From Parcubacteria group bacterium (GTDB taxonomy: Bacteria; Patescibacteriota; Minisyncoccia; UBA10092), in contig JACPLW010000005.1 of the NCBI GenBank assembly GCA_016186325.1, positions 17,191 through 81,190 of the forward strand: 64,000 nucleotides of DNA, given 5' to 3'. The notes below the pieces were generated by a model. That model was not told where the DNA came from. It did no database searches and saw nothing but the letters and a program-made list of their open reading frames with translations. Position numbers and translations under genes: made by a program. Below, piece by piece: positions 3,375-40,282 of this stretch; the stretch's first letter is position 1; the number at the start of each line of letters is the position of its first letter.

Positions 3375-5819
3375 CTATATTACAACATTTATCAATCGTC
3401 CCGGCACAAATATGGTTTTTTTAATTTTAGCGCCACTAATGTATTTTTTAATAATTTCTCGCGATAAAACTATTTCTTCAACTTCAGGGCGTTTCAATTT
3501 TTTTGAAACGCGAACTTTATCGCGCATTTTGCCATTTACTTGAATTACTAGATCGTATTCCTCTACTTCAATAAATTTCGGGTCATATTTTGGCCATACT
3601 TCAAGATGAATCGATTTTCCCCGACGCTTTCGGTCGGAGCTCCGATCCCGAAGGGCGTCGGAGTTATTTCCTATTTTTTGCCAGAGTTCTTCCGTAAAGT
3701 GCGGCGCAAAAGGAGATAGAAGTTTCAAAAAAATTTCGGCCGTATTTTTTGTTATATCGGTTTTTTCAATCTCATTAAAAAGAATCATTAAAGCGCTGAT
3801 TGCCGTATTGAATCTGAAATGCTCTATATCATCCCCTACTTTCTTAATCGTCTGATGTAATAATTGCTGGTATTTGGTATTTGGTATTTGGTATTTGGTA
3901 TTTTGAGATTTAAAATTTAAAAATTTATTCCACACTCGATCTAAAAATCTCTTTATTCCTAAAATCCCGTTAGGATTCCACGGTCCGCCGTTGCTGTACT
4001 CGCCCATAAAACACAAATACATTCTAACCGTATCGGCGCCGTATTTTTTAACCAATTCGTCCGGGTCAACAACATTGCCGCGAGATTTAGACATCCTCTG
4101 TCCATCGCTCCCCAAAATATCGCCCTGATGACGCAAAGATACAAAGGGTTCGTCAAATTCAAGATAACCGGAATCCCGAAGAGCTTTAACAAAAAATCTT
4201 GAATAAAGGAGATGTAAAACCGCATGCTCAGCGCCTCCGACGTACATATCAACCGGCAGCCAGGCTTTTAATTTGTCTTTTGAAGCAAATTGTTTTTTGT
4301 TTTTCGGATCGGTGTAGCGCAGAAAGTACCACGAAGAATCCACAAACGTGTCCATTGTATCCGTCTCTCTGGTTGCCTTGCCCTTGCAATTCGGACACTT
4401 TACATTAACAAAACTTTTTACGCGCGCTAATGGCGACTTGCCTCCGGCGACCGGTTTAAAGTTTTTAAGCGGCGGTAGTTTTACCGGTAATTTATTTTCC
4501 TGAACCGGTACTATCCCGCATTTCTCGCAATAGATAATTGGAATAGGGGCGCCCCAATACCGCTGGCGGGAAATGACCCAGTCGCGCATTTTATATTGAA
4601 TTGAAAAACTACCAAGCCCCTTTTCCTTAAGTTCTTCGGTGATTTTTTTCCCTCCTTCGACAGACTCTAAACCTGTAAACTCGCCGGAATTTACCAATAA
4701 CCCGTCTTCTATTACATTTATAGTTGGCAAATTAAATTTTTTGGCAAATTCAAAGTCCCGCTCATCATGGGCAGGCACCGCCATAATGGCGCCCGTGCCA
4801 TAGTTCATTAAAACATAGTCCGATACCCAAATTGGAATTTCCTCCTGATTTGCCGGGTTAAAAGCAAAAGAGCCGGTAAAAACGCCTGTTTTTTCTTTCT
4901 CTAAGCTCGTTCTTTCGAGCTCTGTTTTAAGATGAGCATTCGCAATATAATGGCGGACATCTTCTTTTTGTTCCTTGGTTGTAACTTTTTCCACCAATGG
5001 ATGTTCCGGCGAAAGTACCATATAAGTAGCGCCAAAAAGCGTATCAGCCCGTGTTGTAAACACTGGAATTTCTAATTTCAAATTTCTAATTTCGAATTTA
5101 ATCAAAGTTCCTTCCGATTTCCCTATCCAGTTTTTCTGCATCAGTTTGGTGCGCTCCGGCCAATCCAACTTATCCAAATCTTTCAGTAATTCTTCCGCGT
5201 AATCCGTAATCTTTAACATCCATTGGTTAACTTCTTTTTGGATAACCAAAGTATCGGGGTGGCGCCAGCATCGGCCGTCAATAACCTGCTCGTTTGCTAA
5301 AATTACCTGATCTTTAGGACACCAGTTAGCTAATGCCTTTTTCTTGTAAGCAAGCCCCGCTTTATGCATTTGAAGAAACATCCACTGGGTCCATTTGTAG
5401 TATTTGGAATCAGCTGTAATCACCTCGCGCGAAAAGTCATAGATATTGCCCATTGACTTAAGCTGTTCTCTCATTGTTTTGATATTTTTATAAGTCCAAG
5501 TTTTTGGGTGAATTTTGCGCGCAATCGCCGCATTTTCGGCCGGAAGACCGAAAGCGTCAAAACCGATGGGGCTCAAAACATTGTAACCCTGCATTCTTTT
5601 AAGACGCGCGAAAACATTGGCCGGCGCATAATTATACCAATGCCCCATATGAAGATTGCCCGACGGATACGGAAACATCGTAAGATGGTAAAAATTTCTT
5701 CGCCCTCCGAAGCCTTTGGCGAAGGATGGGTTTTTGTCCTTAACTTTATAAATACCGGATTTTACCCAGTATTCTCTCCACTTTTTTTCTACTTTTATAG
5801 CGTTATACTTTTCAATCAT
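3375..5819 (-). CDS. leuS: Leucyl-tRNA synthetase
   Basis: Class I HMGH and KMSKS motifs (MSKSRGN) and overall LeuRS architecture. It contains an extra SFAKGFGGR segment before the MFPYPSG motif and an in-frame heptamer tandem repeat. Confidence 0.9.
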   Translation of the reverse strand: MIEKYNAIKVEKKWREYWVKSGIYKVKDKNPSFAKGFGGRRNFYHLTMFPYPSGNLHMGHWYNYAPANVFARLKRMQGYNVLSPIGFDAFGLPAENAAIARKIHPKTWTYKNIKTMREQLKSMGNIYDFSREVITADSKYYKWTQWMFLQMHKAGLAYKKKALANWCPKDQVILANEQVIDGRCWRHPDTLVIQKEVNQWMLKITDYAEELLKDLDKLDWPERTKLMQKNWIGKSEGTLIKFEIRNLKLEIPVFTTRADTLFGATYMVLSPEHPLVEKVTTKEQKEDVRHYIANAHLKTELERTSLEKEKTGVFTGSFAFNPANQEEIPIWVSDYVLMNYGTGAIMAVPAHDERDFEFAKKFNLPTINVIEDGLLVNSGEFTGLESVEGGKKITEELKEKGLGSFSIQYKMRDWVISRQRYWGAPIPIIYCEKCGIVPVQENKLPVKLPPLKNFKPVAGGKSPLARVKSFVNVKCPNCKGKATRETDTMDTFVDSSWYFLRYTDPKNKKQFASKDKLKAWLPVDMYVGGAEHAVLHLLYSRFFVKALRDSGYLEFDEPFVSLRHQGDILGSDGQRMSKSRGNVVDPDELVKKYGADTVRMYLCFMGEYSNGGPWNPNGILGIKRFLDRVWNKFLNFKSQNTKYQIPNTKYQQLLHQTIKKVGDDIEHFRFNTAISALMILFNEIEKTDITKNTAEIFLKLLSPFAPHFTEELWQKIGNNSDALRDRSSDRKRRGKSIHLEVWPKYDPKFIEVEEYDLVIQVNGKMRDKVRVSKKLKRPEVEEIVLSREIIKKYISGAKIKKTIFVPGRLINVVI
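3870..3904. repeat. Heptanucleotide tandem repeat (gtatttg)x4-5 inside leuS
   Basis: ggtatttggtatttggtatttggtatttggtatttt; encodes QNTKYQIPNTKYQ. Confidence 0.6.
5701..5730. repeat. GC-rich element in-frame in leuS (shares GAAGCCTTTGGC with the tatD copy)
   Basis: cgccctccgaagcctttggcgaaggatggg encodes the extra PSFAKGFGGR before MFPYPSG. Confidence 0.45.
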
Positions 5820-6673
5820 ATTTTAAATAAAGCTTTAGCATTATTATGAGTTTGGGTCGCGACTTTGTCAAAACTTAAGCCCTTCCATTCGGCAATTTTT
5901 CGCGCCACAAATTCAACGTAAGCCGGTTCGTTGCGTTTTCCTCGATGCGGCGCCGGCGCCGCAAATGGCGAATCGGTTTCAATAAGAATTTTATCAAGTG
6001 GGACATACTCCACCGCCTCTTTATATTCGTCGGCAAACGTTATTGGTCCGGCAAAAGAAATATAAAATCCTAAATCTATAAATTTTTCAGCGGTTTCTTT
6101 GGAACCGACAAAAAAATGGGCAACGCCGTTACCGCTTGAATCAGGAATTGTGAAGTATGAATTAAGAATATCAATCGCGTCTTCGTAAGCATCTTGACTT
6201 CCAGCCGATGGACGGCAATGTAAAATAATCGGCTTGTTTAATTCTTTCGCCAGTTCAATTTGTTTAATAAAAATATCTTTCTGTTGACTTTTAGTTCTTG
6301 TTTGCGACAATCCGCCTTTGCCAAAGGCTTCGGCGGATGCTCTTTTTTGAAACCGCTCGTTTCGCTCGCGGGCAAAAAAGGCATAATCCAGTCCGCACTC
6401 GCCTATAGCGACGACACTTTGATCTTTTGCCAATTCTCTATATTTACCAATATCAAAATTTTCTTCTAAATTATCATTCGGGTGTAAACCAATAGAAGCC
6501 CATAACAAATCCGGGTATTTTTTAGTTAGTTCAATGGCTTTCTTAGATTCCTCTAAATCAGTTCCAACGCTTATAGCTTTAATACCCGCTTCTTTTAGCC
6601 GGCCAATCATTTCCTCACGATCATCATCGTATTGAGGAAGATGAAGGTGACAATGAGAGTCAAATAATGTCAT
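5816..6673 (-). CDS. tatD: TatD-family metal-dependent deoxyribonuclease/hydrolase
   Basis: N-terminal DSHCHL metal-binding motif and TatD layout. An extra AEAFGKGG segment is encoded by a GC palindrome. Confidence 0.8.
   Translation of the reverse strand: MTLFDSHCHLHLPQYDDDREEMIGRLKEAGIKAISVGTDLEESKKAIELTKKYPDLLWASIGLHPNDNLEENFDIGKYRELAKDQSVVAIGECGLDYAFFARERNERFQKRASAEAFGKGGLSQTRTKSQQKDIFIKQIELAKELNKPIILHCRPSAGSQDAYEDAIDILNSYFTIPDSSGNGVAHFFVGSKETAEKFIDLGFYISFAGPITFADEYKEAVEYVPLDKILIETDSPFAAPAPHRGKRNEPAYVEFVARKIAEWKGLSFDKVATQTHNNAKALFKI
6312..6336. repeat. GC-rich nested palindrome in-frame in tatD
   Basis: ccgcctttgccaaaggcttcggcgg (outer ccgcc/ggcgg, inner ctttg/caaag) encodes AEAFGKGG. 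Confidence 0.5.
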
Positions 6674-8139
6674 TTTAATCTCGGAAAAATGTTGTTTCCT
6701 TTTTTGACTTCTATTTTGTTTCCGACAAACTTTATCTGTGCCTTAATTTTTTCTGCTGTCTCTGGCAAAAACGGCTCAATTAAATCGGAAAACGCTCGGA
6801 TTAAGAAAGAGGCATTGATAACAACTTTTTTCAAATCGTCGCCTTTTAGATTCCAAGGTTTGGTTTCATTAATATAGTTGTCTACGGAATAAACAAGAGC
6901 GAAAGCTGCGCCCAGTGCTTCGTTAAGTTTGATATCACCAATTAATTCACCATACCGCTCACAAATATCATTTTTAGTATTCTTATTCCGTTCTATTACT
7001 TCATCTTCCGAATAGATAATAGGAGAAATCGTTTCACCCAATTTCGCAACACGCGCCACCATATTGCCAATGCCGTTAGCAAGGCCGCTATTATACCTTT
7101 CTTTAAGTTTTTCGTAAGTAAAATCGCCATCGCCGGTTGGCTGAATATCCCACAAAAGATAATAACGCAAAGCATCGGTGCCGTATTTTTTAACTACCTC
7201 GACTGGGTCAACTATATTTCCGACTGTTTTTGACATTTTTTCTCCGTCTACGGTTATGAACCCGTGAACAAAAATTGTTTTAGGAAGCGGCAAACCAGCT
7301 GAAAGAAGCATCCCAGGCCAAATAGCCGCATGGAATCTTAAAATATCTTTGCCGATAACATGCAAATCGGCTGGCCACATTTTTTTAAACTCCGAATTTT
7401 CTTCATTATATCCAATTGCGGTAATATAATTTGAGAGCGCATCACACCAAACGTACATTGTATGTTCCGGGTCGTCCGGTACTGGGATACCCCACTCCAA
7501 GTCTTTACGAAGACGGGAAAAACTTACATCTTCCAACCCCTGATCAATTAAAGACAAAATTTCGTTTTTGCGGGTCTCGGGAATTATTTTTAATTCATCA
7601 TTCTTAATCAATGACTCTATATCCTTTGAATATTTTGAAAGACGAAAAAAATAATTTTCTTCCTCTATTACTTCCGGTTCTTTTTTATGATCGCTGCATT
7701 TGCCGTCAACCAAATCTTTTTCGGTGACAAAAGCTTCGTGTCCCACGCAGTAAAGCCCGCGATATTTCTTTTTATATAAATCGCCGGATTCCGCCAGCTT
7801 AAGCCATAACTTTTGCGCGCCTGGCCAATGACGTTTCTGGTCGCTTGTTCTGATAAAATCATCAAACGATAAATTAAGAACTTTTTTAAGTTCCTTAAAT
7901 TTCTCCGCGTTTTCATCCACAAAATCTTTTGGATTTTTCCCGGCCGCTTCCGCTGCCCGCACGATTTTTGCGCCATGCTCATCAGTACCGGTCAGAAACA
8001 AAACTTCATCGCCTTTTATCCGGCGGTACCTTGCCAGAACATCTGCCTGAATTTTTTCCAAAGCATGGCCAATATGCGGCTTCGCATTCACATAATCGAT
8101 TGCAGTCGTAATATAGAATTTTATTTTGATTTTATTCAT
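6670..8139 (-). CDS. metG: Methionyl-tRNA synthetase (short form lacking the C-terminal tRNA-binding domain)
   Basis: HIGH-type motif (PHIGHA) and KMSKT motif (GEKMSKTVGN). Confidence 0.85.
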   Translation of the reverse strand: MNKIKIKFYITTAIDYVNAKPHIGHALEKIQADVLARYRRIKGDEVLFLTGTDEHGAKIVRAAEAAGKNPKDFVDENAEKFKELKKVLNLSFDDFIRTSDQKRHWPGAQKLWLKLAESGDLYKKKYRGLYCVGHEAFVTEKDLVDGKCSDHKKEPEVIEEENYFFRLSKYSKDIESLIKNDELKIIPETRKNEILSLIDQGLEDVSFSRLRKDLEWGIPVPDDPEHTMYVWCDALSNYITAIGYNEENSEFKKMWPADLHVIGKDILRFHAAIWPGMLLSAGLPLPKTIFVHGFITVDGEKMSKTVGNIVDPVEVVKKYGTDALRYYLLWDIQPTGDGDFTYEKLKERYNSGLANGIGNMVARVAKLGETISPIIYSEDEVIERNKNTKNDICERYGELIGDIKLNEALGAAFALVYSVDNYINETKPWNLKGDDLKKVVINASFLIRAFSDLIEPFLPETAEKIKAQIKFVGNKIEVKKGNNIFPRLK

Positions 8140-11100: not shown

Positions 11101-12492
11101 TTAATCTTCAAGTTGTTTTTTAAAATAATCCACTAAATCTTTAACTGCTACCCTTTCCTGCTTCATCATGTCCCTATTGCGAACTGTGACTTTTTTGTCT
11201 TCAAGCGAGTCAAAATCTACGGTTATGCAAAATGGCGTCCCAATTTCATCTTGCGCATAATAACGTTTCCCGATATTGCCGCGGTCATCCCAAGCGACCA
11301 TAAAATTTTGTTTTAATTCGTCGTAAATCTCTTTCGCTTTATTCACCAATTCGGGCTTATTTGCCAAAAGCGGAAAAACAGCAACCTTATAGGGTGCTAA
11401 TTTTGACGGTAACTTTAGTAAAACTCTGTCATTATCTTCTGCGTAATGTTCTATTAAAACCGCTAAAATGGATCGATCGACCCCCCAAGTCGGTTCAATC
11501 ACATGCGGCCAAAATTCTTCACCGGTTTGAGAATCCCTGTAAGGCGCTGTTTCTTTATAATGATTTCTCAAATCAAAATCGGTTCGATAAGCCAAACCGT
11601 AAAGTTCGTTCTTACCGAAGGGAAAATCATATTCAAAATCTATTGTCCGCTTTGAGTAATGGGCGCGTTTATCTTCGGGTACTTCAAGTTCATAAATATG
11701 TTTTTTATCCAAGCCTAAATCTTTTTCCATCCAATCATGCATTTCTTTCCTCCAATATTCAAAATGTTCCTGCCAATCTTTGTCCTTTTTCGGCACCGGA
11801 ATAAAATATTCAATTTCCATCTGTTCAAATTCACGAGTTCTGAAAATAAAATTCCCCGGCGTAATTTCATTCCTGAATGCTTTGCCGATTTGGGCAATGC
11901 CAAACGGCACGGTTTTTCTGCTTGTATCCAAAACATTTTTAAAATCGACAAACATTCCTTGGGCCGTTTCTGGACGCAAATAAACAACATTCTCTCTACT
12001 TTCTACAGGCCCGAGATTAGTTTTAAACATTAAGTTAAACTGCCTTGGGATAGTCCAGTCATGAACTCCGCCATTCGGACATTTAATATTTAATTTAATA
12101 AGATTCTTTAGTTGCTTAATAGGATCAATATCGTGAACAATAGGTTCAGGATATTCCAGAGCAATTAAAATATCGCTCCGCTCACGATAATTACATTTTT
12201 TACACTCAACCAATGGATCGTTAAAAGTCGCAACATGCCCGCTCGCTTCCCAAACTTTTGGATTCATTATTAAAGCCGAATCAATACCAATGATATCGTC
12301 GCGATTTTGAACAAACTTTTTCCACCACAGTTGCTTAATATTGTTTTTAAGTTCAACGCCTAATGGACCATAATCCCAGGAATTAGCCAATCCGCCATAA
12401 ATTTCACTGCCGGGAAAAATAAATCCCCGCCTTTTGGCAAGCGATACAATTTTTTCCATTAAATTTTCTTGGTTATCTTTTGTTTGCGCCAT
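11101..12492 (-). CDS. glyQS: Glycyl-tRNA synthetase, alpha2 (GlyQS) type
   Basis: Class II GlyRS N-terminus (RRGFIFPGSEIYGGLANSWDYGPLG) and a length of about 460 aa. Confidence 0.85.
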   Translation of the reverse strand: MAQTKDNQENLMEKIVSLAKRRGFIFPGSEIYGGLANSWDYGPLGVELKNNIKQLWWKKFVQNRDDIIGIDSALIMNPKVWEASGHVATFNDPLVECKKCNYRERSDILIALEYPEPIVHDIDPIKQLKNLIKLNIKCPNGGVHDWTIPRQFNLMFKTNLGPVESRENVVYLRPETAQGMFVDFKNVLDTSRKTVPFGIAQIGKAFRNEITPGNFIFRTREFEQMEIEYFIPVPKKDKDWQEHFEYWRKEMHDWMEKDLGLDKKHIYELEVPEDKRAHYSKRTIDFEYDFPFGKNELYGLAYRTDFDLRNHYKETAPYRDSQTGEEFWPHVIEPTWGVDRSILAVLIEHYAEDNDRVLLKLPSKLAPYKVAVFPLLANKPELVNKAKEIYDELKQNFMVAWDDRGNIGKRYYAQDEIGTPFCITVDFDSLEDKKVTVRNRDMMKQERVAVKDLVDYFKKQLED

Positions 12493-12606
12493 TTATATAA
12501 ACTGATTAAACTCAAAAATAATTTCAGAAACTATAAGCCATAATAACATAATTTCTAACTAATTTACAATATTAAACAAATATTTGTTTACGATTAAAAA
12601 TCGATT

Positions 12607-12642
12607 CCCCTCAATTTATTGCTATAGCAAGAAATTGAGGGG
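12607..12642. promoter_or_regulatory. 36-bp near-perfect palindrome with a CTATAG core (candidate operator upstream of glyQS, or terminator of the PaaX-like gene)
   Basis: Read directly: cccctcaatttattgctatagcaagaaattgagggg. A 16-bp perfect AT palindrome aaacaaatatttgttt lies at 12574..12589. Confidence 0.4.
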
Positions 12643-12669
12643 ACAAAATTTTATTAACTAATTTCTTTA

Positions 12670-13230
12670 TTAAACAATTTTAAAAAATTGCCGCAAGTCA
12701 CCCTCCCGCTTATCTATAGACTCTACAGTACAATAATTCACATAACGACTAATTGACAGAAACTCGCAAATAAAATCTATCTCGTTTTGACAATCATAAG
12801 GATAAACAAAAACGCTCTCTTGTAAATGATACAGCCCCAAATCTCTTAATTTATTGGATAGAGCGTTTCTTTCTTTTTTCTTTTTTTCCGGAATATCAAA
12901 AATTACCAATCGCCATTTTTTATCCCACTCTTTAGTATTTAATAACTCTATGTCATCATAATCAAATCGTTTTAATAAATTTCTGCCATTAGCGGTAATT
13001 TTTACATAAATATTATCGCCCTTTTCTACCAATTCTACCAATCTTTTATTGTTCAACCGTTTTACGGCATCATGAATACGTCGTTTATCAATTTTATCCC
13101 AATTTCTGCGCCAGCGCATTAATGGTTTTAAAAGTTGGGCAACATTGGGCGCGAATAGCGACGATAAAATTAATGTGCCGGAAGCGGCTATAAATAAAAC
13201 GTCTCTGGTTAACGATTTTTTGTGCAGCAT
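12670..13230 (-). CDS. PaaX-like transcriptional regulator homolog (N-terminal hydrophobic segment, winged helix, PaaX/Cas2-like fold domain)
   Basis: The motif WRLVIFDIPEKKKKERNALSNKLRDLGLYHLQESVFVYP matches the PaaX core (W..VVYD.PE..R..LR..L...GFG.LQ.SVW..P). A winged-helix-like segment precedes it. Paralog at 25847..26416. Confidence 0.45.
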   Translation of the reverse strand: MLHKKSLTRDVLFIAASGTLILSSLFAPNVAQLLKPLMRWRRNWDKIDKRRIHDAVKRLNNKRLVELVEKGDNIYVKITANGRNLLKRFDYDDIELLNTKEWDKKWRLVIFDIPEKKKKERNALSNKLRDLGLYHLQESVFVYPYDCQNEIDFICEFLSISRYVNYCTVESIDKREGDLRQFFKIV

Positions 13231-15850: not shown

Positions 15851-16348
15851 TTATAGCACATTGAAATCCCCCAGATAATACCTGGCTTCTTCAAAATTAT
15901 CCCCAAACCCCATTATTTTAGTAAAGCCGGATTTAAAATCGCTTAAAAATTTGTCAGCACTGCCATTTTCAACATCTCTTGCTTTTAAAAAACCTTCAAG
16001 AATAAAATTCCACAACACTTCGTCTTTTTGCGGCTCTTTTAACATTGTCAAAGCAAAATTAGCCATTTTTGTAAAAAGCGTAATTTTATCGGGAGCAGTA
16101 TTGTTAAGCAGCGGCCCATGCGAAAGAGCGGTAGTAATAATAAGTTCGCCGCCTTTTTTTGAAATCAGTTCAACCCAAACAAAATTAAACGGTTCAAGAT
16201 GGCCCGTAAGTTTGGCATTGATTTTTCGAACACTTCCCGCCGTAGCCCTCACCTTGCCGAAATCTTGCGTATATAAATGATAAAGGCGATCAGCTTCAAA
16301 AATATCCTCCCGTTTTAAAACAAGCGCGTTAGTTTGATAAGAATTCAT
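15851..16348 (-). CDS. RecO-like DNA repair protein (N-terminal OB-fold region, short)
   Basis: N-terminus ALVLKREDIFEADRLYHLYTQDFGKVRATAGSVRK resembles the RecO N-terminal domain. Confidence 0.45.
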   Translation of the reverse strand: MNSYQTNALVLKREDIFEADRLYHLYTQDFGKVRATAGSVRKINAKLTGHLEPFNFVWVELISKKGGELIITTALSHGPLLNNTAPDKITLFTKMANFALTMLKEPQKDEVLWNFILEGFLKARDVENGSADKFLSDFKSGFTKIMGFGDNFEEARYYLGDFNVL

Positions 16349-16389: not shown

Positions 16390-17028
16390 TTACAAAAGAG
16401 CAAACTCACTAAAAGAGTTGAGGACATGATCGACCAATCCGTAAGCAACACTCTCTTTGGCGTCCATCCAAAAATCAAGACGGTTGATGTCGCTCTCAAT
16501 CAGGTCTGGCGCCTTATTCGTATGCCGGGATAAAATGCCGATGTAAAGAGTTTTGACTTTGTTGAACTCTCTGACTTGATTTTCAACCTCTTTCGGATCA
16601 CCGCCGAAATGACTTCTGGGCATATGAATCATCGTCCGAGAATTCGGAAGTATATATCTGTGGCCCGGCTCGCCGCCTACTAGAATTGGAACCGCTGCCG
16701 AAGCCACTACTCCCGTGGCAACTGTGTAAATAGGCGAGCGCGACGCCTTCATAATGTCATAAAGATTAAGGTAGGCCGACGCCAAACCGCCGGGCGAATC
16801 AATCATCAGCTTAATAGGTTCGCGATTGAGCGAATCAAGATAAATAATTTGGTCTATAACACTGCGTGGAGAAGACGCCCAGTCAAAGGGTATTGAACCG
16901 TCGTTGTAATAAGCAAGGCCGCCCGTTCCATCAAGCTGGCAATCAAGAAAAAGCAGGCGTTCTTCAAAAAACAACTGACGAAGGAATCTTGCGTTACTGC
17001 GTTTGAAATTATTGTTGCTCACCAGCAT
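16390..17028 (-). CDS. clpP: ATP-dependent Clp protease proteolytic subunit
   Basis: S14 family motifs: IDSPGG, VASAAV (catalytic Ser), MIHMP (His), AYGLVD (Asp region). The N-terminal region is extended. Confidence 0.6.
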   Translation of the reverse strand: MLVSNNNFKRSNARFLRQLFFEERLLFLDCQLDGTGGLAYYNDGSIPFDWASSPRSVIDQIIYLDSLNREPIKLMIDSPGGLASAYLNLYDIMKASRSPIYTVATGVVASAAVPILVGGEPGHRYILPNSRTMIHMPRSHFGGDPKEVENQVREFNKVKTLYIGILSRHTNKAPDLIESDINRLDFWMDAKESVAYGLVDHVLNSFSEFALL

Positions 17029-17094: not shown

Positions 17095-20000
17095 TTACAT
17101 TTTGGCAATACCTATCCAGATATCCTTGCTTTCCAACTTAAAATGACGGTCAATAAGCAAACCGTCTTTAATTACGCCGACAAATTCAATTTTTCTCGCG
17201 CCGACTTCGGAAGTTAAAGTTTTTTCCCATTTCGAAATAATTTTTTGGATATTTTCTTCTCCTTTCATATAAACCACTATCGTTTCTTTAGGCGTTAAAC
17301 CTCCGTCTTTTCTCATACCTTGAATCTGGCGGGCTATTTCTCTGGTCAAGCCCTCTTCTTTCAGTTCGGTGGTAATTTTTGTGTCTAATTCTATTTTATC
17401 GCCAAAAACAATTTCTTTGACATTTACCTCATCTTTAATAAGATCTAAAAGTTCTGGGTATTTTTTCAACCCGGTTTCGGCAATGGTAAGCGCTTGAAGC
17501 GGCTGGCGCACTTTGATGCCCGCTTCCGCCCGAAGAGCCAGTGCTTCGGCAGAAATTTCTCTAACTAGGCCCATTTGTTTTTCTAATTTTAAATCAATAA
17601 GTTTTTTATCGGCTTTTGGCCAGTCGCATAGATGAACCGATTCCGGCATTTTATCTCTTTTCAAAAACAAATAAATTTCTTCCGATAAAAACGGCAGAAA
17701 CGGAGAAATAACTTTTACTAAATTCAAAAGCACGAAATAAAGCGTTTCGGCAGCCTCCTCTTTTTCTTTTTTAGATTTTGGCCTCTGAAATCTCTCCCGA
17801 GAACGCCGTATATGCCAAAGGGAAAGATCGTCAATAAAGAATTCTTCGATAGCCCTGCTGGCGTAAGCCGGATTATACTTATCCAGATTTTGGGTAACCT
17901 TTTCTATCAGATTATTCAGACGCGACAAAATCCAAAAGTCTAACAAATTTTGAGGATTGGTGCCGCGCCCGCCTAAATTTCCGGTGGAAATTTTGGCGGG
18001 TAAATAAGTTTTAAAAAAAATAAAACTATTCCAAAAATTAATAAGTTTCCTTTCGGATTCTTTAGCGGCGCCGTACCCAAATTTTAAGTTATCCGCCGGA
18101 TTCTGTTTAACATACATCCAGCGCATAACGTCAACGCCGATTTTTTCCGCCGCCTCGTCAAACCAGATGGCATTTCCTTTTGATTTATGCATCTCCTCTC
18201 CTTTTTCATCCCGAACCGAAGCATAACCGAAAACTGTTTTCATTGGCGGTAATTTTTCTAAAACAGTACTCATTACGATAAGAGAATAAAACCAATTTTT
18301 AAATTGTCCGGGAAAAGACTCGCAAACCAATTCTGCGGGAAACCATTTGCGCCAAAATTTTTTGCCCGGCACGTTACTGCCATCGGGCAGTTTTACGTGC
18401 TCATTAAAATATCTCATCGTTGAGTAGGGAACGATTCCGGCATCCAGCCAGGGATTGCCGACATCGAGAATACGCGAAGTTTTTTCATCGCACTTGGGAC
18501 ACTTAATCTTAATTTCGTCAACGTAGGGCCGATGCAAATCTAAATCGCCTTCATTATTATAGGGCCAATTATGGCCCGCCATTTCAACAACGGAACCAGT
18601 TACTCCGTCAATGCTAAACTTTTCAAATGCTTCTTCATTTTTATAACCCTGGTAGGAACTGGCGGCCGCAATTATCGGATTAGCATGGCTTACTATCAAA
18701 ATCGTTTTGCCTTCATATTTCCTGTCCGTTTCTTTCAAAAAATCCATCATCCTTTTTTTGACATCTTTTAAGTTTTCACCGCCGCTTGGTCTGACGACAT
18801 ATTGATCCACCTTGCCACCAAAAAGCGAATGCCAATCCCCATGAGTGCGCCCGTTATAAGCCCCGGAGTCGTGTTCACGGAGCCGCTTGTCATAAATTAT
18901 TTTTTGGCCCAAAGCGCCGGAAATAATTTGGGCGGTTTCTTTCGTCCGCAATAAGTCGGAAGAAAACACCAAATCCACGCTTTTTTTCTTAAACCACGGA
19001 ACAAGTTTTTCAATTTCTTTAGCACCCCTTATGGTTAATAAGTACTTCTTTTTTTCCGGATAAGAAGAAATGATTTTTAGCCGATTGTTTTCCGCCTCGC
19101 CGTGACGCAGAAAAATATAATGATTAAGTTTTTTTGGCGAGAACTTGTCAAAATCAGCGAGCGAACCGATAACCTCAAAATTGCCGCACCGGCACTCAAA
19201 AATGGGCAGCGCCAATCCCCAATATCTTTTCTTGCTAATCAACCAGTCGGACATATTTTTCAGCCAGTCGATTTCCCTCTCCAGACCAAAAGAGGGAATC
19301 CATTTTATTTTTTTAGCTATTTTTATAAGCGGATTCCTTAACTTGTCCATTGATATGTACCACTCATCGGCAATTTTCCATACCAATTCGGTTTTGCACC
19401 TCCAGCAGATAGGATAACGATGGGTATATTTGGGGGCGCTAAAAAGAAATCCGGCGGTTTTTATGTAATCAATTATTATTTCGGGGCGTTCTTTCGCGTT
19501 TTGGCCGCTAAATTCTCCAAGCCCTTTCACATAAAAAGCTGCGTCATTAATCAAATCAATTGCCGGAATTTTTATTTTTTTCCCCAATCTGTAATCTTCG
19601 GTGCCTTGACCGGGTGCGATATGAATCAACCCCGTTCCTTCGGTTTCACTAACCGGCAAAATTCGTGAGTCGGTGGCAACAACCTTGTGAATAAAGCCGG
19701 ATAAAGCTTTTTTAACAGCTGGCAAGTTATCAAAAGGTGATTTGTAAGTTAAATCGACTAACTCTTTTCCTTTAAAAGTCCTGATAATTTTAAGGTTTAA
19801 TCTTTCAGCTGCTTCTTTTATAAGATAATAGGAAGCTCCGCTTCCAAGTTCACTTGGAAGCGGAGCTTCCAAGTCAGTTGCTTCCACGTAAATTTTGTCG
19901 GGATCTACGGCTACCGCCGCGTTTCCGGGAAGAGTCCAGGGAGTTGTCGTCCAAACCAAAAGATAGGTATTTTTTTTGAAAATGTTGGAAGCTCGGTTTC

Positions 20001-20628
20001 CAACAATAGGATATTCTATGTAAACGGAATCATGGGTAACTTCTTTATAATCCTCGGTAAGTATCTCATGCTGGGAAATGGCCGTACCGCAACGCCAGCA
20101 CCAGGGAACAACATCGTGCCCTTTGTAAAGCAGTCCTTTTTCTTTACATTTTTTCAAAAAGTGCCAGATGGCAACATTGTTTTCATTAGACATTGTGTAG
20201 TAACTGTTCTTCCAATCCATCCATTGGCCCAACCTGATTGATTGATTTGTTTGAATCGCGGAATACTTTCTCACGCGCTCTTTACACTTTTCAACGAATT
20301 TGGCAATGCCATATTTTTCAATGTCTTTTTTTGACTTAAAACCCAATTCTTTTTCCACCTCAACTTCAACCCAAAGCCCTTGGGCGTCAAATCCGTTTTG
20401 AAACCTCTGGTCAAATCCTCGCGCCGCTTTATATCTTTGGAACAGATCTTTGTAGGTTCTCCCCCACGCGTGATGAACTCCCATTGGATTATTGGCGGTA
20501 ATCGGCCCGTCTAAAAACGACCAACTTTTTTGGCCTTTAATTTTTTTCCGCAGCTTCTCAAAAATTTGATTATTTTGCCAAAAATCAAGGATTCTTTCTT
20601 CAGTTTTGGGACCAAAAGATTCTATCAT
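17095..20628 (-). CDS. ileS: Isoleucyl-tRNA synthetase (type 2) with an inserted histidine-phosphatase (PGAM/SixA-like) domain
   Basis: HIGH-like motif PMGVHHAWG; editing-domain motif TTPWTLPGN; KMSKS motif EEMHKSKGN. About 165 aa between residues ~500 and ~665 (nt ~18636..19131) carry FLRHGEAENN, LRTKETAQII and LIVSHANPI, the histidine phosphatase hallmarks. Confidence 0.9.
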   Translation of the reverse strand: MIESFGPKTEERILDFWQNNQIFEKLRKKIKGQKSWSFLDGPITANNPMGVHHAWGRTYKDLFQRYKAARGFDQRFQNGFDAQGLWVEVEVEKELGFKSKKDIEKYGIAKFVEKCKERVRKYSAIQTNQSIRLGQWMDWKNSYYTMSNENNVAIWHFLKKCKEKGLLYKGHDVVPWCWRCGTAISQHEILTEDYKEVTHDSVYIEYPIVGNRASNIFKKNTYLLVWTTTPWTLPGNAAVAVDPDKIYVEATDLEAPLPSELGSGASYYLIKEAAERLNLKIIRTFKGKELVDLTYKSPFDNLPAVKKALSGFIHKVVATDSRILPVSETEGTGLIHIAPGQGTEDYRLGKKIKIPAIDLINDAAFYVKGLGEFSGQNAKERPEIIIDYIKTAGFLFSAPKYTHRYPICWRCKTELVWKIADEWYISMDKLRNPLIKIAKKIKWIPSFGLEREIDWLKNMSDWLISKKRYWGLALPIFECRCGNFEVIGSLADFDKFSPKKLNHYIFLRHGEAENNRLKIISSYPEKKKYLLTIRGAKEIEKLVPWFKKKSVDLVFSSDLLRTKETAQIISGALGQKIIYDKRLREHDSGAYNGRTHGDWHSLFGGKVDQYVVRPSGGENLKDVKKRMMDFLKETDRKYEGKTILIVSHANPIIAAASSYQGYKNEEAFEKFSIDGVTGSVVEMAGHNWPYNNEGDLDLHRPYVDEIKIKCPKCDEKTSRILDVGNPWLDAGIVPYSTMRYFNEHVKLPDGSNVPGKKFWRKWFPAELVCESFPGQFKNWFYSLIVMSTVLEKLPPMKTVFGYASVRDEKGEEMHKSKGNAIWFDEAAEKIGVDVMRWMYVKQNPADNLKFGYGAAKESERKLINFWNSFIFFKTYLPAKISTGNLGGRGTNPQNLLDFWILSRLNNLIEKVTQNLDKYNPAYASRAIEEFFIDDLSLWHIRRSRERFQRPKSKKEKEEAAETLYFVLLNLVKVISPFLPFLSEEIYLFLKRDKMPESVHLCDWPKADKKLIDLKLEKQMGLVREISAEALALRAEAGIKVRQPLQALTIAETGLKKYPELLDLIKDEVNVKEIVFGDKIELDTKITTELKEEGLTREIARQIQGMRKDGGLTPKETIVVYMKGEENIQKIISKWEKTLTSEVGARKIEFVGVIKDGLLIDRHFKLESKDIWIGIAKM

Positions 20629-20632: not shown

Positions 20633-22372
20633 TTACATCTTATCAGGAGCTTTTATCCCCATCAAGTTCAAAGCGTTTCCTAAAACGATTTTAGTTGCCG
20701 TAACCAAAGCCAATCGCGCGGAGGTTAACTTTTTGTCTTCTGTAATCACTCTTTCTTTTTCATAGAAATTGTGGAACTCCCGCGCCAGTTCCAGAGCATA
20801 GCGCGGCAAGCGATGGACTTCGTAATTTATCGCGATATCACTTAAAACCTCGGGAAACTCGGTGAGTTTCCTAATTAAATCAAATTCGGCATTTGTTTTT
20901 AATGCACTAAATTCAGAGCTTAAGACCTCGGCTTTAGAGACCTTTGCTTTGCGCAAATTAGAGACCTTTGCTTTGCGCAAAATTGAGGAAAGCCGCGCGT
21001 ACGCGTACTGCACATAATAAATCGGATTTTTTTGCGAACGTTCTTTGGCTAGCGATAAATCAAAATCCATGTGAGTATCGGATGAATACATCAAAAAGAA
21101 AAATCTCACGGCATCAAGCCCAATCTCACCAACCAGCTCGTCTAAAGTAACAAAAATTCCGGCTCGCTTTGAAACCTTTGCTTTTTTACCGCCGGAAACG
21201 AGGCGGACAAACTGAATCAGCACTATTTTTAAGCGCTCCGAATTAATCCCCAATGCTTTTAAAGCCCCCATCAAGCGCGGAATGTCTCCATGATGGTCGG
21301 CTCCCCAGATATTTATCGCTTTATTAAATTTTCTTACTTCAAATTTATTTAAATGATAAAGAATGTCAGACATAAAGTATGTTTCGTCGCCATTACTTTT
21401 TATCAAAACCCGGTCTTCGGTATCGCCTAATTCCGACGTTTTCATCCAAGTGGCGCCATCTTTTTCATAAATTAAATCTTTGCGCATTAAATCTTCCATT
21501 ACTTTTTCATACTGTCCCCCCTTATAAAGGGACTTTTCAGAAAACCAAACATCAAAATTTATTCCGAGCTTTTTTATAACCGGCTTTATATGCGTATTTA
21601 AAATTAAATCAACCGATGCCTGCCCGGCTTCTTCAATGCTAAAATTTTTGTCTATCTGTTTTGCCAAGTCGTTAATATAATCTCCTTTATATAAATTTTC
21701 TAATTCGGTTTTTTCTAAACTCAAATTCTCGCCCTGCGCTAGCTTGATTGATCTTCCAAGAGCAAGAATTTGGCCACCCCTATCATTTATATAAAACTCG
21801 CGAGTAATGTTATACCCTTGTGTTTCCAAAATATTAGCCAGCACATCACCATAAAACCCTCCTCGGCCATTAGCCATTGTTAAGGGCCCGGTGGGATTGG
21901 CAGAAATAAATTCAACTTGAACTTTGTAATTTTTACCGACATCAGAATTTCCGTATTTATTTTTTTCTTTCAGAACTTCCTTAAGTTGATGACGGAGACA
22001 TTCGGGCGACAGAAAAAAATTAATAAAACCGTTCACGGCATCAATTTTTGAAAATTCTTTCTTGTCCGCCGAAACTTTCTTGCCCGCCACAGCTTTAGCG
22101 TAGGAGGGAGTGAAGGCGGATATTTTTTGGCTATTTAACTTTTTAACTAATTCTTCGGCAATTATTTGCGGTGATTTTTTTCCGCCTGAGGCGAGATCTC
22201 GCCCCTTTTGGGCGGATAAAATTTTGGCAAGCAAAAAAGCGACGTTTGACGAATAGTCGCCATGTTCTCTATTCTCGGTAACTTTAACTAAAACCTCTCC
22301 CCTAAACTCCGGAGCGATTTTTCGAATAATGTCGTTTAGATAGGTTTTTATAAGCTCTTTCATTCCATACAT
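20633..22372 (-). CDS. argS: Arginyl-tRNA synthetase
   Basis: Class I ArgRS motifs (FISANPTGPLTMANGRGG); carries a 24-nt in-frame tandem duplication (LRKAKVSN twice). Confidence 0.9.
   Translation of the reverse strand: MYGMKELIKTYLNDIIRKIAPEFRGEVLVKVTENREHGDYSSNVAFLLAKILSAQKGRDLASGGKKSPQIIAEELVKKLNSQKISAFTPSYAKAVAGKKVSADKKEFSKIDAVNGFINFFLSPECLRHQLKEVLKEKNKYGNSDVGKNYKVQVEFISANPTGPLTMANGRGGFYGDVLANILETQGYNITREFYINDRGGQILALGRSIKLAQGENLSLEKTELENLYKGDYINDLAKQIDKNFSIEEAGQASVDLILNTHIKPVIKKLGINFDVWFSEKSLYKGGQYEKVMEDLMRKDLIYEKDGATWMKTSELGDTEDRVLIKSNGDETYFMSDILYHLNKFEVRKFNKAINIWGADHHGDIPRLMGALKALGINSERLKIVLIQFVRLVSGGKKAKVSKRAGIFVTLDELVGEIGLDAVRFFFLMYSSDTHMDFDLSLAKERSQKNPIYYVQYAYARLSSILRKAKVSNLRKAKVSKAEVLSSEFSALKTNAEFDLIRKLTEFPEVLSDIAINYEVHRLPRYALELAREFHNFYEKERVITEDKKLTSARLALVTATKIVLGNALNLMGIKAPDKM
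20937..20985. repeat. 24-nt tandem duplication with a palindromic TTTGCGCAAA core, in-frame in argS
   Basis: agagacctttgctttgcgcaaatt twice, giving LRKAKVSN LRKAKVSK. Confidence 0.6.
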
Positions 22373-22420: not shown

Positions 22421-22888
22421 ATGGCAATATTCTCCGAAAACCGAAAGGCTCACTTTGATTACGAAATCCTAGAAATTTTTGAGGCAGGCTTAGTGTTGTC
22501 TGGCGCCGAGGTTAAGTCAATAAAAGGAGGGCGCATGAACTTAGCCGGCTCTTACGTTAACTTCCATAATGGCGAACCCTATCTAATCGGCGCTTCAATC
22601 GCTCCTTATCAGCCAAAGAACCAGCCATCCGACTACGACCCGTCTCGCTCAAGAAAATTGCTTTTGAATAAAAAAGAAGTTGACTATATTTCCGGTAAAA
22701 CAAAACAAAAAAGCTTGACTTTAGTGCCTTTAAAGGTATATAATAAAGGCCGCCGAATTAAACTGGAATTTGGTTTGGTCAGGGGTAAAAAGCAGTATGA
22801 CAAACGCGATGCTATAAGCCGACGAGAAATAGAGAGAGAAATCGACAGAAAAATTAAACAAGAGCATGGGAGTGACGGGCTTCGATAG
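22421..22888 (+). CDS. smpB: SsrA-binding protein
   Basis: Typical SmpB sequence (GAEVKSIKGG, basic C-terminal tail). Confidence 0.9.
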   Translation: MAIFSENRKAHFDYEILEIFEAGLVLSGAEVKSIKGGRMNLAGSYVNFHNGEPYLIGASIAPYQPKNQPSDYDPSRSRKLLLNKKEVDYISGKTKQKSLTLVPLKVYNKGRRIKLEFGLVRGKKQYDKRDAISRREIEREIDRKIKQEHGSDGLR

Positions 22889-23275
22889 AACTTGAAAATT
22901 AAATATGCAGGACGAGGATATCTCGTAACCTTGAAAATCCGTCCCGCAGTTGCGGGATGCGACAATCCCCGAGATCCAGCAAATAACTGGCAAAACAAAT
23001 TTAACTCCTGCTTTAGCTTTTGCTTAAGTAGGTTTTACCCCGCGAAGCTTTAGCGTAGTGGGGCATCGGTCGCCTGACGCCCAGTAGGACGATACCGGTG
23101 TCAACAATTGGGCTCTAACCTGAAAATTCTTCGGTTCGGGTTGAACTAAAGAAGAAATTGGGAACCTTCCATTTTGACTGTTTCAAGGAGGATTTTCAAA
23201 AAATTCAAACAGCCTACGCCTGTAGAAATATTTAATTAAAAATTCTAGATGCGAGTTCAACTCTCGCCACTTCCA
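22868..23275 (+). ncRNA. ssrA: tmRNA (ssrA), one-piece; 5' end overlaps the last 7 codons of smpB; CCA not encoded
   Basis: 5' GGGAGTG-ACGGGC-TTCGATAG resembles the tmRNA 5' acceptor strand plus TTCGA D-analog. 3' end GCGAG-TTCAACT-CTCGC (T-arm, T-loop identical to E. coli tmRNA), then CACTTCC (pairs with GGGAGTG) and discriminator A. Internal tag-like frame ...ggc aaa aca aat tta act cct gct tta gct ttt gct taa gives GKTNLTPALAFA followed by a stop. Confidence 0.7.
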
Positions 23276-25846: not shown

Positions 25847-26416
25847 TTAAAGTAAGCCGAACCTATTCCTTAAGTCGAACTCAATATCGACATCTCTCAC
25901 TCTTAAGTATCTTATATAAGGTACTAATTCAAAAATCTCAGCTATAAAATCAATTTCATTTTTACATTCATGGGGATGGATAAAAACACTTTTTTGCATT
26001 GGATAAAAACCAATTTCCTTAAGTTTTACAGCCAGCGCCGTTCTTCCTTTTTTCTTATCTTCGGGAATATCAAAAGTTACTACGCGCCATAATCTATCCC
26101 ATTTTAGAGGTTTTTTGATTTCAATTTTATCTAAATTGTAAACTAAAACCTTTTTTTGACCCACTTCAGTTAAGACAAGGCGAACAGTGCCATCTTTATT
26201 TTCTTTATAATCTATAATTTTTGCCTTGTATAATTTCTTTATTGATTCTCTTAAACTGCGCTCATTTACCTTTCTCCACTCTTTGGCAACGTCTTTCAAA
26301 ATCTTAAAGTAGGCATCGGGACGGCCCGTCAAAGATAAAACGAGTCCCGCTTGCAAAAGCAATAAAACTTTTTTTCCCACGTGTCCTAAATGTCGCATTA
26401 TCCAAGATAGTATCAA
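25847..26416 (-). CDS. PaaX-like transcriptional regulator homolog (paralog of 12670..13230)
   Basis: WRVVTFDIPEDKKKGRTALAVKLKEIGFYPMQKSVFIHPHECKNEIDFIAE; N-terminal hydrophobic segment plus a wHTH-like region. Confidence 0.45.
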   Translation of the reverse strand: MILSWIMRHLGHVGKKVLLLLQAGLVLSLTGRPDAYFKILKDVAKEWRKVNERSLRESIKKLYKAKIIDYKENKDGTVRLVLTEVGQKKVLVYNLDKIEIKKPLKWDRLWRVVTFDIPEDKKKGRTALAVKLKEIGFYPMQKSVFIHPHECKNEIDFIAEIFELVPYIRYLRVRDVDIEFDLRNRFGLL

Positions 26417-34448: not shown

Positions 34449-35243
34449 CTAAAAAATGATAAAGCTTAATATTAAATCCGACAGAAAAAAAGCGATAATA
34501 GCGCCTGTAACCAAAAACGGTCCGAAAGCAACTTGGCTTTTTAGGGTCTTCTTGCCAAGCCCTACTAAGATTATACCAAATGTGGCGCCAAAAATAAAAG
34601 CCAGCGTTAAAGCAACGGCAGTTGATAAGGGATTTAAAAATAAAGCGATTAAAACAGCCAGCTTGGCATCGCCAAGGCCCATAGCCTTGCCATGAGAAAA
34701 ATAAAAAAGCAAAAAGAAAAATAAAAACGCGATTACGGCAACTGAAAGCGGCCAAACAAGTATTTCAATATTTTGAAATTTGAAAGAGTTAAAAACGTTA
34801 TATAAAAAAACAACGATAGTAACCGGATAGACGATTTTATCGGGAATAATTTTCCATTTAAAATCACAAACTGCGATAACTAAAAGCGCTGAAAAAATTA
34901 AAATTTCATAAAATGTATTCAGCAATTGGAAATTAGAAATTGGAAATTGGAAATTGTCGAGATTCTTGCTGAACACTAAAATCCATATCAGACCGGAAAG
35001 AATCTCGACTGTGGGATATTGCCAAGAAATCTTTTTACGGCAATACCGGCAACGACCGCGAAGGTACAAAAAACTTAATAAAGGCATTAAATCATACCAC
35101 TTTAAGCTGGTTCTACATTCAAGGCACATTGAACGGCCAAAAAACCCACTCTTCAGTTGAAGGGTGGGTTTTTTCAAGCGGTAAATAACAACGTTTAGAA
35201 AACTGCCAAAAACTAAGCCCAAGATAAAAACTAGATAAGACAT
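34449..35243 (-). CDS. pilD: Prepilin peptidase (A24 family)
   Basis: N-terminal tetra-Cys region (CLECR...CRYCRKKI); polytopic with conserved Asp-containing segments (AVCDFKWKIIPD; GLGDAKL). Contains an in-frame heptamer tandem repeat. Confidence 0.8.
   Translation of the reverse strand: MSYLVFILGLVFGSFLNVVIYRLKKPTLQLKSGFFGRSMCLECRTSLKWYDLMPLLSFLYLRGRCRYCRKKISWQYPTVEILSGLIWILVFSKNLDNFQFPISNFQLLNTFYEILIFSALLVIAVCDFKWKIIPDKIVYPVTIVVFLYNVFNSFKFQNIEILVWPLSVAVIAFLFFFLLFYFSHGKAMGLGDAKLAVLIALFLNPLSTAVALTLAFIFGATFGIILVGLGKKTLKSQVAFGPFLVTGAIIAFFLSDLILSFIIF
34928..34955. repeat. Heptanucleotide tandem repeat (ggaaatt/agaaatt)x4 inside pilD
   Basis: ggaaattagaaattggaaattggaaatt; encodes LDNFQFPISNFQ on the minus strand. 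Confidence 0.6.
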
Positions 35244-35273
35244 GGATCAAGTTTAGGCTTCGCGCTTTAGGAT

Positions 35274-35846: not shown

Positions 35847-35879
35847 AAATTTATTTAATAATGATTAAATCGACCTTTT

Positions 35880-37112: not shown

Positions 37113-37244
37113 CCCCCACCCTTTCTAAATAAATTTTAAACGCGACCTTTGTTTGAGGTTTGTAATAATTATCATTAAATTTAATATATTTTTTCTTAGT
37201 CATAGTTTCAAATTAAAAAAGCGAAATTTAGAAAGGGTGGGGGA

Positions 37245-38312: not shown

Positions 38313-38354
38313 GTTTTATAATAAATAATTTAGAATTTTAACAAGATTTTATCT

Positions 38355-39926: not shown

Positions 39927-39937
39927 GTTTATAATTT

Positions 39938-40282
39938 TTAATATGGAACAAACGGATTGACTCGTCCAAGCGAGTCGGCAATTATCGGAAGTCCTCCGTA
40001 AATTTTCAGCGATTTATAAAAATCGCCGTCAAAAACATCAAAACGAAATCCCGGTAATTCGCCAACTTTTAATTCAAGAGGATTTAAAACCGGCGCCGGC
40101 GAAATAATCGGGGTTTTCAAAGACAGGCCGACTCCTTTATAAAAGAAAAAATAAGCGCCGGCTCCTAAAACCAAAATGGCAAATAACCCAATTAAATAAG
40201 ACAGGTAAGATTTATTGGAAGATGCCGGAGGTTTGAAAGCTCCAAAAGTACCTGATGACATTGTGCTGGGGATATTAACCAT
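39938..40282 (-). CDS. Small membrane protein, pilus-associated (PilP-like?)
   Basis: One TM segment; operon context only. Confidence 0.3.
   Translation of the reverse strand: MVNIPSTMSSGTFGAFKPPASSNKSYLSYLIGLFAILVLGAGAYFFFYKGVGLSLKTPIISPAPVLNPLELKVGELPGFRFDVFDGDFYKSLKIYGGLPIIADSLGRVNPFVPY

Follow-up and report, generated by a model that had tools for sequence, protein, structure and literature searches.

Why should an isoleucyl-tRNA synthetase carry a phosphatase within its catalytic core? The question is raised by a stretch of 64,000 nucleotides (nt) from a Parcubacteria group bacterium (contig JACPLW010000005.1, positions 17,191 to 81,190; the whole stretch is called the window here, and its coordinates are used throughout), in which the gene for a type-2 isoleucyl-tRNA synthetase (IleRS2), ileS (17095..20628, minus strand), is a single uninterrupted open reading frame (ORF) of 1177 amino acids (aa) with a histidine-phosphatase domain inside it. 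The same insertion recurs across many Patescibacteria, while other lineages encode the phosphatase as a separate gene next to ileS. From the fusions, the coupled operon and the mutual exclusivity of the two forms we infer that phosphatase and IleRS probably constitute a two-enzyme unit, of which the ileS of the window is the single-gene form and in which the phosphatase is effectively a subunit of the synthetase.

A complete histidine phosphatase within ileS

The Pfam family His_Phos_1 (PF00300) matches aa 505-688 of the protein (18565..19116, minus) with an E-value of 5.8e-34 and a score of 117.9 bits (gathering score 21.7), covering profile positions 2-186 of 194. A preliminary description of the locus had proposed a complete histidine-phosphatase domain here, and it was right about this and about the insert as such, although the interval it gave, 18636-19131 (aa 500-665), misses the last quarter of the domain. 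The motifs that it quoted are all found at their places in the 1177-aa ORF: WLISKKRYWG (aa 462), CRCG (aa 479), FLRHGEAENN (aa 506), LTIRGAKEIE (aa 531), SSDLLRTKETAQII (aa 556) and LIVSHANPI (aa 644).

Structure prediction with AlphaFold2 (AF2) gives the insert as a regular beta/alpha/beta domain (aa 503-684) in the model of the full protein, and a model of the domain on its own reaches a predicted local distance difference test (pLDDT) score of 91.8, in keeping with the complete module that had been proposed. Foldseek matches this domain model, at a probability of 1.00 and template-modelling (TM) scores of 0.80-0.82, to PspA (4IJ5/4IJ6), the phosphoserine phosphatase of H. thermophilus, and further to the M. 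tuberculosis GpgP Rv2419c (4PZ9), B. stearothermophilus PhoE (1H2E), TIGAR and a histidine phosphatase of the riboflavin pathway (9MMH). The best fold matches are small-molecule phosphomonoesterases of ∼200 aa, and the PDB sequence search agrees, returning 4IJ5, 1EBB/1H2E and 1FZT, the phosphoglycerate mutase (PGM) of S. pombe. Among NCBIfam subfamilies the top match is the archaeal-type cofactor-dependent PGM (dPGM_arch, NF038349; 94.6 bits against a cutoff of 225), followed by scores likewise below cutoff for CobC (TIGR03162; 81.9 against 162.9), PspA (NF045917; 76.1 against 350) and pgm_1 (TIGR01258; 26.9 against 81.7). As no curated subfamily cutoff is reached, the domain represents a distinct, uncharacterised subfamily. 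SixA, to which the domain had been likened, is absent from the 25 best of the 27 NCBIfam matches, from the PDB sequence matches and from the top 50 fold matches; by sequence and by model the domain instead resembles the short branch-1 histidine phosphatases of the PhoE/PspA type.

Conservation among homologs identifies a full set of active-site residues on the minus strand: the RHG motif R508-H509-G510 (19099..19107), with H509 as the predicted phospho-acceptor; R561, the second phosphate-binding arginine, in SSDLLRTKETA (18946..18948); E585, the predicted general acid, in RLREHDSG (18874..18876); and H648, the second active-site histidine, in LIVSHANP (18685..18687). Across 146 fused homologs, many of them just 30-45% identical to the domain of the window, R508 and H648 are kept in all, H509 and R561 in 145 each, and N515 in 130, while the position of E585 holds Glu in 134 and Asp in 11. 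Free-standing homologs have the same catalytic pattern, with the equivalents of RHG, R561 and H648 present in 45/45. Azambacteria domains share 62-81% identity with that of the window, and the IleRS bodies 73-81%, indicating a constraint comparable to that on the essential enzyme. Judged from these sequences, the domain is apparently an active phosphatase.

Insertion point and anatomy of the host enzyme

In an alignment of 15 fused and nine unfused relatives (alignment A1), which underlies the residue comparisons of this section, the whole segment aa 489-696 (18541..19164, minus) is missing from the unfused orthologs. About 210 aa stand in place of a linker that has 20 aa in the unfused proteins, a net gain of ∼190 aa, so the expectation that orthologs would have only a short linker here holds. 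In the window protein ∼210 aa separate IGS (486-488) from HRPY (699-702), and a tblastn alignment of an unfused Azambacteria IleRS (P0071) against the window breaks at 19144 and 18534. The insert is bracketed by the two halves of the second zinc knuckle, C479-x-C481 (19186..19194, minus) and C710-x-x-C713 (18490..18501, minus), and because all four cysteines are invariant it can be placed as an excursion from the zinc-knuckle loop after WxISKKRYWG, which we take to be probably the CP3 region in yeast IleRS nomenclature. Motif position and alignment alike show IleRS sequence resuming at DLHRPYVD (aa 697; 18517..18540, minus); the stretch W-P-Y..EG..HRPY aligns with the native linker W-E-K-F-EG..HRPW and is therefore part of the synthetase and not of the domain. 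What has been inserted is an entire stand-alone phosphatase, as its N-terminus KKLNHYIFLRHG matches the N-terminus MKLNNTYFILRHG of the free proteins and it reaches their last strand. Its GC content (0.40-0.46) equals that of the flanks, and the only repeats at the insert boundaries are short, chance-level ones.

The IleRS body around the insert looks intact, both in sequence and in the model. Pfam splits tRNA-synt_1 in two (aa 13-481 and 727-846), with Anticodon_1 at aa 897-1046 and DUF5915 at aa 1079-1152 in the C-terminal part, and NCBIfam's ileS equivalog TIGR00392 (cutoff 621.4) matches with 657.3 bits, one stretch of the match lying on each side of the insert. The AF2 model of the full protein, built from a 102-sequence alignment (mean pLDDT 85.9, predicted TM score 0.83), finds its best fold match in the IleRS2 of P. 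megaterium (8C9D/8C8V; target-normalised TM 0.81) and also matches yeast IleRS and T. thermophilus IleRS 1ILE (TM 0.90). The assignment of the host as a type-2 IleRS, made earlier from motifs, is borne out by this match and by the TIGR00392 score. The CP1 editing motifs WTTTPWT and EGTG.xH.APG..EDY are conserved, as are the zinc-knuckle cysteines, and no second ileS is found within the 64-kb window. The HIGH signature reads G50-V-H-H53 (20470..20481, minus), of the non-canonical G/AXHH type, and the KMSKS-equivalent loop reads E812-M-H-K-S816 (18181..18195, minus) and not the literal KMSKS previously noted, the first Lys being replaced and the second kept. Both GVHH and EMHKS are invariant in the Parcubacteria relatives, fused and unfused alike. 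In IleRS2 the G/AXHH motif is functional and has been shown experimentally to give mupirocin hyper-resistance (Brkic et al., 2023; PMC10485003).

Two further small insertions in IleRS vary among lineages, DLEAPLPSELGSGAS at aa ∼252-266 (∼19831-19875, minus), which is modelled at low confidence, and EHVKLPDGSNVPG at aa ∼744-755 (∼18364-18399, minus); each is common to only some of the Azambacteria relatives.

Distribution of the fusion

A search with the full-length protein returned 22 fused clusters at 70-100% identity. One of them is the window protein itself (P0049, from a metagenome-assembled genome at NCBI labelled 'Parcubacteria group bacterium'), and the other 21, from Candidatus Azambacteria, are 70-81% identical to it; five Azambacteria IleRS (P0071-P0075; 960-970 aa, 76-80% local identity) are without the insert. 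Searching 1.84 billion representatives (50% identity) with aa 440-770 yielded >100 proteins of ∼1100-1275 aa, each covering flank, domain and flank in one stretch, and for 142 of 155 inserted segments the site falls within one and the same stretch of 30 residues in the unfused reference.

The GTDB species representatives were scanned with a seven-sequence alignment sharing VSHGDPLW and one motif variant, [IVL][VI][SG]HGDPLW; the taxa given are submitter labels. Of the 376 related stretches found, the best 80 were taken as loci, and in 79 of these the domain lies within a long ORF with IleRS flanks, the fusion being widespread in Patescibacteria. Nearly all 80 carry labels of Patescibacteria (Paceibacterota, Harrison-, Colwell-, Lipton-, Jorgensen-, Brenner-, Uhr-, Azam- and Nealsonbacteria, Patescibacteria group, or 'uncultured Saccharibacteria'), and one is labelled 'uncultured Gammaproteobacteria'. 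The 60 complete fused ORFs from these loci have a median length of 1180 aa. Fused IleRS carry HxGH or G/AxHH signatures, the latter in 51 of the 60. Outside Azambacteria the fused IleRS bodies are only 31-40% identical to that of the window (55% for P0087) and their domains 27-46%, a divergence indicating that the fusion spans several deeply diverged IleRS2 lineages. The phosphatase, whether fused or encoded by a coupled gene upstream of ileS, is retained even in genomes of ∼0.64-0.69 Mb, and complete genomes that have the module include CP179887 and CP179888. A word-indexed search with the insert, which returned free ∼190-aa proteins and one fused fragment, had suggested that the fusion is rare; the exhaustive search and the genome scan overturned this.

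Free-standing homologs beside ileS

The free-standing homologs, of ∼188 aa, were sampled by their similarity to the insert (38-50% identical, mostly 44-50%). In 9/9 cases the gene precedes, on the same strand, an ileS that has no fusion, and in 8/9 the two genes abut, usually with an ATGA overlap. Six phosphatase/ileS junctions read in DNA have overlaps of 4, 4, 4, 7 and 10 nt and one 3-nt gap, and two other abutting pairs lie close together; the overlap at the ileS start suggests coupled, roughly equimolar synthesis. The phosphatase gene was located upstream of ileS in Portnoybacteria (GCA_014728535.1), Staskawiczbacteria (GCA_016181685.1), a 195-kb JGI contig, an ENA contig and two further ENA contigs, at locus L061, and in a complete Nealsonbacteria genome (CP179888.1, a 187-aa gene paired with a 962-aa IleRS) and GCA_040961015.1, the last two found from the IleRS side. 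On a Pacebacteria contig it lies 1.6 kb upstream of ileS, separated from it by three small ORFs and away from any argS, which indicates that the phosphatase gene is tied to ileS and not to argS.

The window shares with these loci the order argS-(phosphatase)-ileS-recO-large surface protein, the sister lineages placing the phosphatase gene between argS and ileS. In the window argS (20633..22372, minus; Pfam) is directly upstream of ileS with a 4-nt gap, and recO (15851..16348, minus; Pfam and synteny) is the conserved downstream neighbour. At the 80 best GTDB loci, 79 of them fused, no second phosphatase copy was found within 6 kb. There are accordingly three states: a coupled separate gene, an inserted domain, and no phosphatase at the locus. 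Proteins that are fused in some lineages and coupled neighbours in others bear the classical signature of working together, and on the strength of the fusions and the coupled upstream neighbour we regard the phosphatase as a dedicated partner of IleRS, whether in one gene or two.

Between ileS and recO the window has a gene for a ClpP-family protease (16390-17028, minus), which is absent there in all related loci examined; in those, recO or a small ORF directly follows ileS. At one Azambacteria locus (L004, GCA_030646675.1) a bAvd accessory protein and an RVT_1 reverse transcriptase (11882-12795 of that locus) lie ∼4 kb downstream of an unfused ileS, a pair that suggests a diversity-generating retroelement.

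Cassette replacement and variant architectures

The domain has been exchanged as a cassette. In the Azambacteria protein P0070 the IleRS body is 78.8% identical to that of the window and the domain just 26.7%, being 46-54% identical to the domains of the fused proteins P0225, P0192, P0227 and P0235, the last with a body only ∼37% identical to the window's; the flanks of the P0070 insert (FDK... and ...HNWPYNNEGDLDLHRPYVD) are unchanged, indicating replacement at the same site. A second insertion site is used in P0254, where the domain lies between the catalytic and anticodon-binding domains, and P0202 has two His_Phos copies, one per site. Two other phosphatase-bearing IleRS have acquired further modules, an AAA_18 P-loop (kinase-like) domain in P0277, and GNAT together with an in-frame IS200-type Y1 transposase domain in P0200. 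In these bacteria, IleRS seems particularly prone to acquire enzymatic modules. The association is not strictly limited to IleRS, as P0287 is a valyl-tRNA synthetase (ValRS; PPPNVTGNLHLGH, WCISRQIWWG) with four His_Phos domains, one before the WCISRQ motif and three in tandem after it, in an ORF cut by the contig end.

In simple distance trees of 191 domains the fused and free states cluster strongly, requiring eight parsimony changes as against ∼40 after shuffling, so that transitions between the two states have been few. The domain of the Azambacteria stands at about the same distance from free-standing domains as from other fused ones.

Proposed function and alternative explanations

A whole PhoE/PspA-type phosphatase of ∼190 residues thus sits, in frame, in a surface loop of a type-2 IleRS, and sister Parcubacteria encode the same phosphatase family in a separate ∼188-aa gene that immediately precedes ileS and usually overlaps its start codon. 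If phosphatase and IleRS do work as a unit, the unfused phosphatase may associate physically with IleRS. By homology with the branch-1 mechanism, R508, R561 and H648 would hold the terminal phosphoryl group, H509 would attack it to form a phospho-histidine, and E585 would protonate the leaving group before water frees the phosphate. Given the second insertion site, the tandem arrays and the forms with a separate chain, exact placement by the synthetic site is apparently not required, and what is conserved is the tethering. This pattern fits either a large shared substrate, as tRNA spans the enzyme, or simple co-localization or stoichiometry.

We tentatively propose, with slightly less than even confidence, that the phosphatase acts on a phosphate carried by a nucleic acid or nucleotide that takes part in the aminoacylation cycle. 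Any single candidate is harder to support: removal of a blocking 2′/3′-phosphate or pyrophosphate from the tRNA acceptor end is rather unlikely, and the same must be said of an unrelated central-metabolic compound; hydrolysis of AMP or another nucleotide product is a little more doubtful again, and the synthetase protein itself, or else no substrate or something other than these, would each be improbable. In the first case the enzyme could perform an 'end-healing' or quality control of tRNA on the synthetase, in which a block at the CCA end, left by ribonucleases or by tRNA-pyrophosphorylating toxin enzymes, would be stripped so that the tRNA can be charged. We put this forward as speculation with the odds clearly against it; if true, it would give class Ia synthetases a second editing-like module, in the Candidate Phyla Radiation (CPR).

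Several observations weigh against a dedicated phosphatase-IleRS unit acting in the aminoacylation cycle. Every solved homolog acts on small metabolites, none on RNA ends or proteins. At the nearest unfused Azambacteria ileS (P0071) argS is directly followed by ileS and the locus has no phosphatase, showing that the two enzymes need not be paired there. Adjacency in an operon can arise in very compact genomes without a functional link, and the gene sits in a general cluster of translation genes (smpB, infC-rpmI-rplT, argS, ileS). That such an activity should be needed mainly in IleRS, and in one ValRS besides, would also be puzzling.

A rival reading, which we consider unlikely, is that the domain is an ordinary central-metabolic enzyme merely travelling with ileS, such as a divergent cofactor-dependent PGM, a phosphoserine phosphatase or a broad PhoE type, whose link to ileS would reflect co-expression or stoichiometry in a minimal genome with no mechanistic tie to aminoacylation. 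The best solved homologs are indeed metabolic (PspA 4IJ5, PhoE, 1FZT, GpgP, the riboflavin-pathway phosphatase and TIGAR), as is the top subfamily match, NF038349. In a CPR-wide survey (PMC7304191), shallow clades of Parcubacteria were reported to lack PGM, described as 'possibly too divergent', a gap that the IleRS-linked phosphatase family could fill, and the 64-kb window contains no other PGM-like gene, no second His_Phos and no glycolytic genes. The domain nevertheless falls short of the curated cutoffs of dPGM_arch, pgm_1, PspA and CobC alike. Most characterized PhoE/GpmB-like proteins of ∼200 aa are, moreover, without mutase activity. A random metabolic enzyme would not be expected upstream of ileS in nine of nine cases, nor within the IleRS core of hundreds of species across deeply diverged IleRS2 clades, nor to be re-inserted or swapped at the same loop, to occur in two to four tandem copies or to turn up in ValRS. 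The histidine phosphatase superfamily also includes protein phosphatases, and toxins that phosphorylate aminoacyl-tRNA synthetases exist (HipA on GltX, HipT on TrpS), so the domain could conceivably act in cis on the synthetase, in the manner of PGAM5, Sts-1 or SixA, and reverse an inhibitory phosphorylation of the active-site region by a toxin kinase, so that IleRS would go on working. Tethering, extra copies and cassette swapping do resemble conflict-driven diversification, but the fold and the closest homologs are of the minimal small-molecule type, no kinase partner was seen at any locus examined, and the gene lies among housekeeping translation genes, all of which makes this a distinctly improbable account. 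PADLOC, consulted for a link with anti-phage defence, gave no match for the domain, one stand-alone homolog or two multi-domain variants.

It is very improbable that the domain is a catalytically irrelevant passenger, whether as a spacer with a structural or tRNA-binding role or as an insertion, neutral or selfish, that a permissive loop tolerates. The loop does tolerate large insertions, and GNAT, AAA_18-like P-loop and IS200-type transposase domains occur in related IleRS, but the five catalytic residues are kept in at least 145 of 146 fused proteins at 30-45% identity, and equally in the free-standing ones, and the evolutionary rate of the domain is about as low as that of the essential IleRS body. 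A mobile element as such was rejected given the chance-level junction repeats, the lack of a GC shift and the recurring architecture. The chance that an artefact is the explanation is negligible, whether it be a chimera of assembly, two genes called wrongly through a frameshift, or an intein. The same architecture in independent assemblies (22 clusters and 79 species genomes) excludes an error of assembly; the ORF is a single one and shows no GC shift. As for an intein, Pfam finds no Hint or other intein family, and the C-terminal junction G-H-N-W-P-Y is wrong for splicing, reading H-N-W and not H-N-C/S/T, so the view that the module is a permanent one stands.

Comparison with known systems

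The phosphatase of the unit is like B. stearothermophilus PhoE (1EBB/1H2E), PspA (4IJ5) and GpgP (4PZ9) in size (∼190-210 aa), in its RHG...R...E...H set and in fold (TM 0.77-0.82), and JGI labels its stand-alone relatives 'broad specificity phosphatase PhoE'. It differs from them in being only 21-25% identical, in a loop of its own, S-x-[WY]-P-E, that follows the RHG strand, and in its dedication to an aminoacyl-tRNA synthetase, to which it is fused or with which it shares an operon. The host has the IleRS2 fold, GVHH for HxGH and the DUF5915-type C-terminal region of the described G/AXHH IleRS2 (PMC10485003; PDB 8C8U-8C9D), but where those have a short zinc-knuckle linker it has the phosphatase insert, together with EMHKS. 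There is no mention of a phosphatase or of Patescibacteria in that paper, nor in a 2026 preprint on how the domains of IleRS evolved.

There is a curated precedent for an IleRS with an extra catalytic domain in NF040702 (ileS_w_GNAT), and P0200 combines His_Phos with GNAT; the window protein, however, scores 282 where 1999 is the cutoff, Pfam finds no acetyltransferase family in it, and the NCBIfam scan of it matched no comparable curated model for the phosphatase-bearing form. The CP1 editing domain of IleRS, ValRS and leucyl-tRNA synthetase is likewise a hydrolytic domain within the Rossmann-fold core, one that acts on the product of the synthetic site, but CP1 is universal, has another fold and hydrolyses aminoacyl esters, whereas the His_Phos insert is lineage-restricted, occupies a different loop and is built for phosphoryl removal. 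Branch-1 phosphatases are joined to nucleic-acid or nucleotide enzymes in the Rv2228c-type RNase H/acid phosphatase (NF005567, to which the insert scores 74 bits, far below the cutoff of 326) and in PFK-2/FBPase-2, and the phosphatase and AAA_18 P-loop of P0277 recall such kinase/phosphatase pairs; those proteins, in contrast, are end-to-end fusions, not core insertions, and involve no tRNA synthetase. In the searchable literature we found no description of a fusion or pairing of IleRS with a histidine phosphatase. The sequences and their Pfam domains are already public, and what appears to be new is that a widespread partnership between IleRS and the phosphatase is recognized in them.

Other features of the window

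The window is rich in translation genes, with leuS at 3375-5819, tatD at 5816-6673, metG at 6670-8139 and a class II aminoacyl-tRNA synthetase at 11101-12492. Upstream of argS lie smpB (22421-22888) and the tmRNA gene (22868-23275), whose start is inside the 3′ end of smpB. Two proteins of ∼186-189 aa (12670-13230 and 25847-26416, both minus) have a PaaX central or Cas2-like domain, one of them weakly matching CRISPR_Cas2. A type IV pilus set, of a kind common in CPR bacteria, occupies 34449-42445 (prepilin peptidase, N_methyl pilin-like protein, PilC-like T2SSF, two T2SSE ATPases, PilO and PilM). Further along, a YcaO cyclodehydratase gene (51095-52546, minus) adjoins a nitroreductase-family gene (50385-51098, minus), with two ORFs without Pfam matches and two tetratricopeptide-repeat proteins alongside. 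Such a pair is typical of azole-forming clusters for ribosomally synthesized and post-translationally modified peptides, similar to those for thiazole/oxazole-modified microcins.

Implications for aminoacylation in Patescibacteria

Aminoacyl-tRNA synthetases are among the most studied enzymes, and the catalytic domains inserted in their cores (CP1, INS) have to our knowledge so far all been editing modules. The fused proteins are named only 'class I tRNA ligase family protein' by PGAP, so that for annotation, too, it matters that essential enzymes go under this generic name alone. The IleRS-phosphatase link in hundreds of Patescibacteria species implies a selected tie between phosphate removal and the charging of isoleucine, which features in no current model of the aminoacylation cycle. 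Its substrate would reveal a new step of tRNA repair or quality control, a product-removal trick for energy-poor cells, or the missing PGM of the Parcubacteria.

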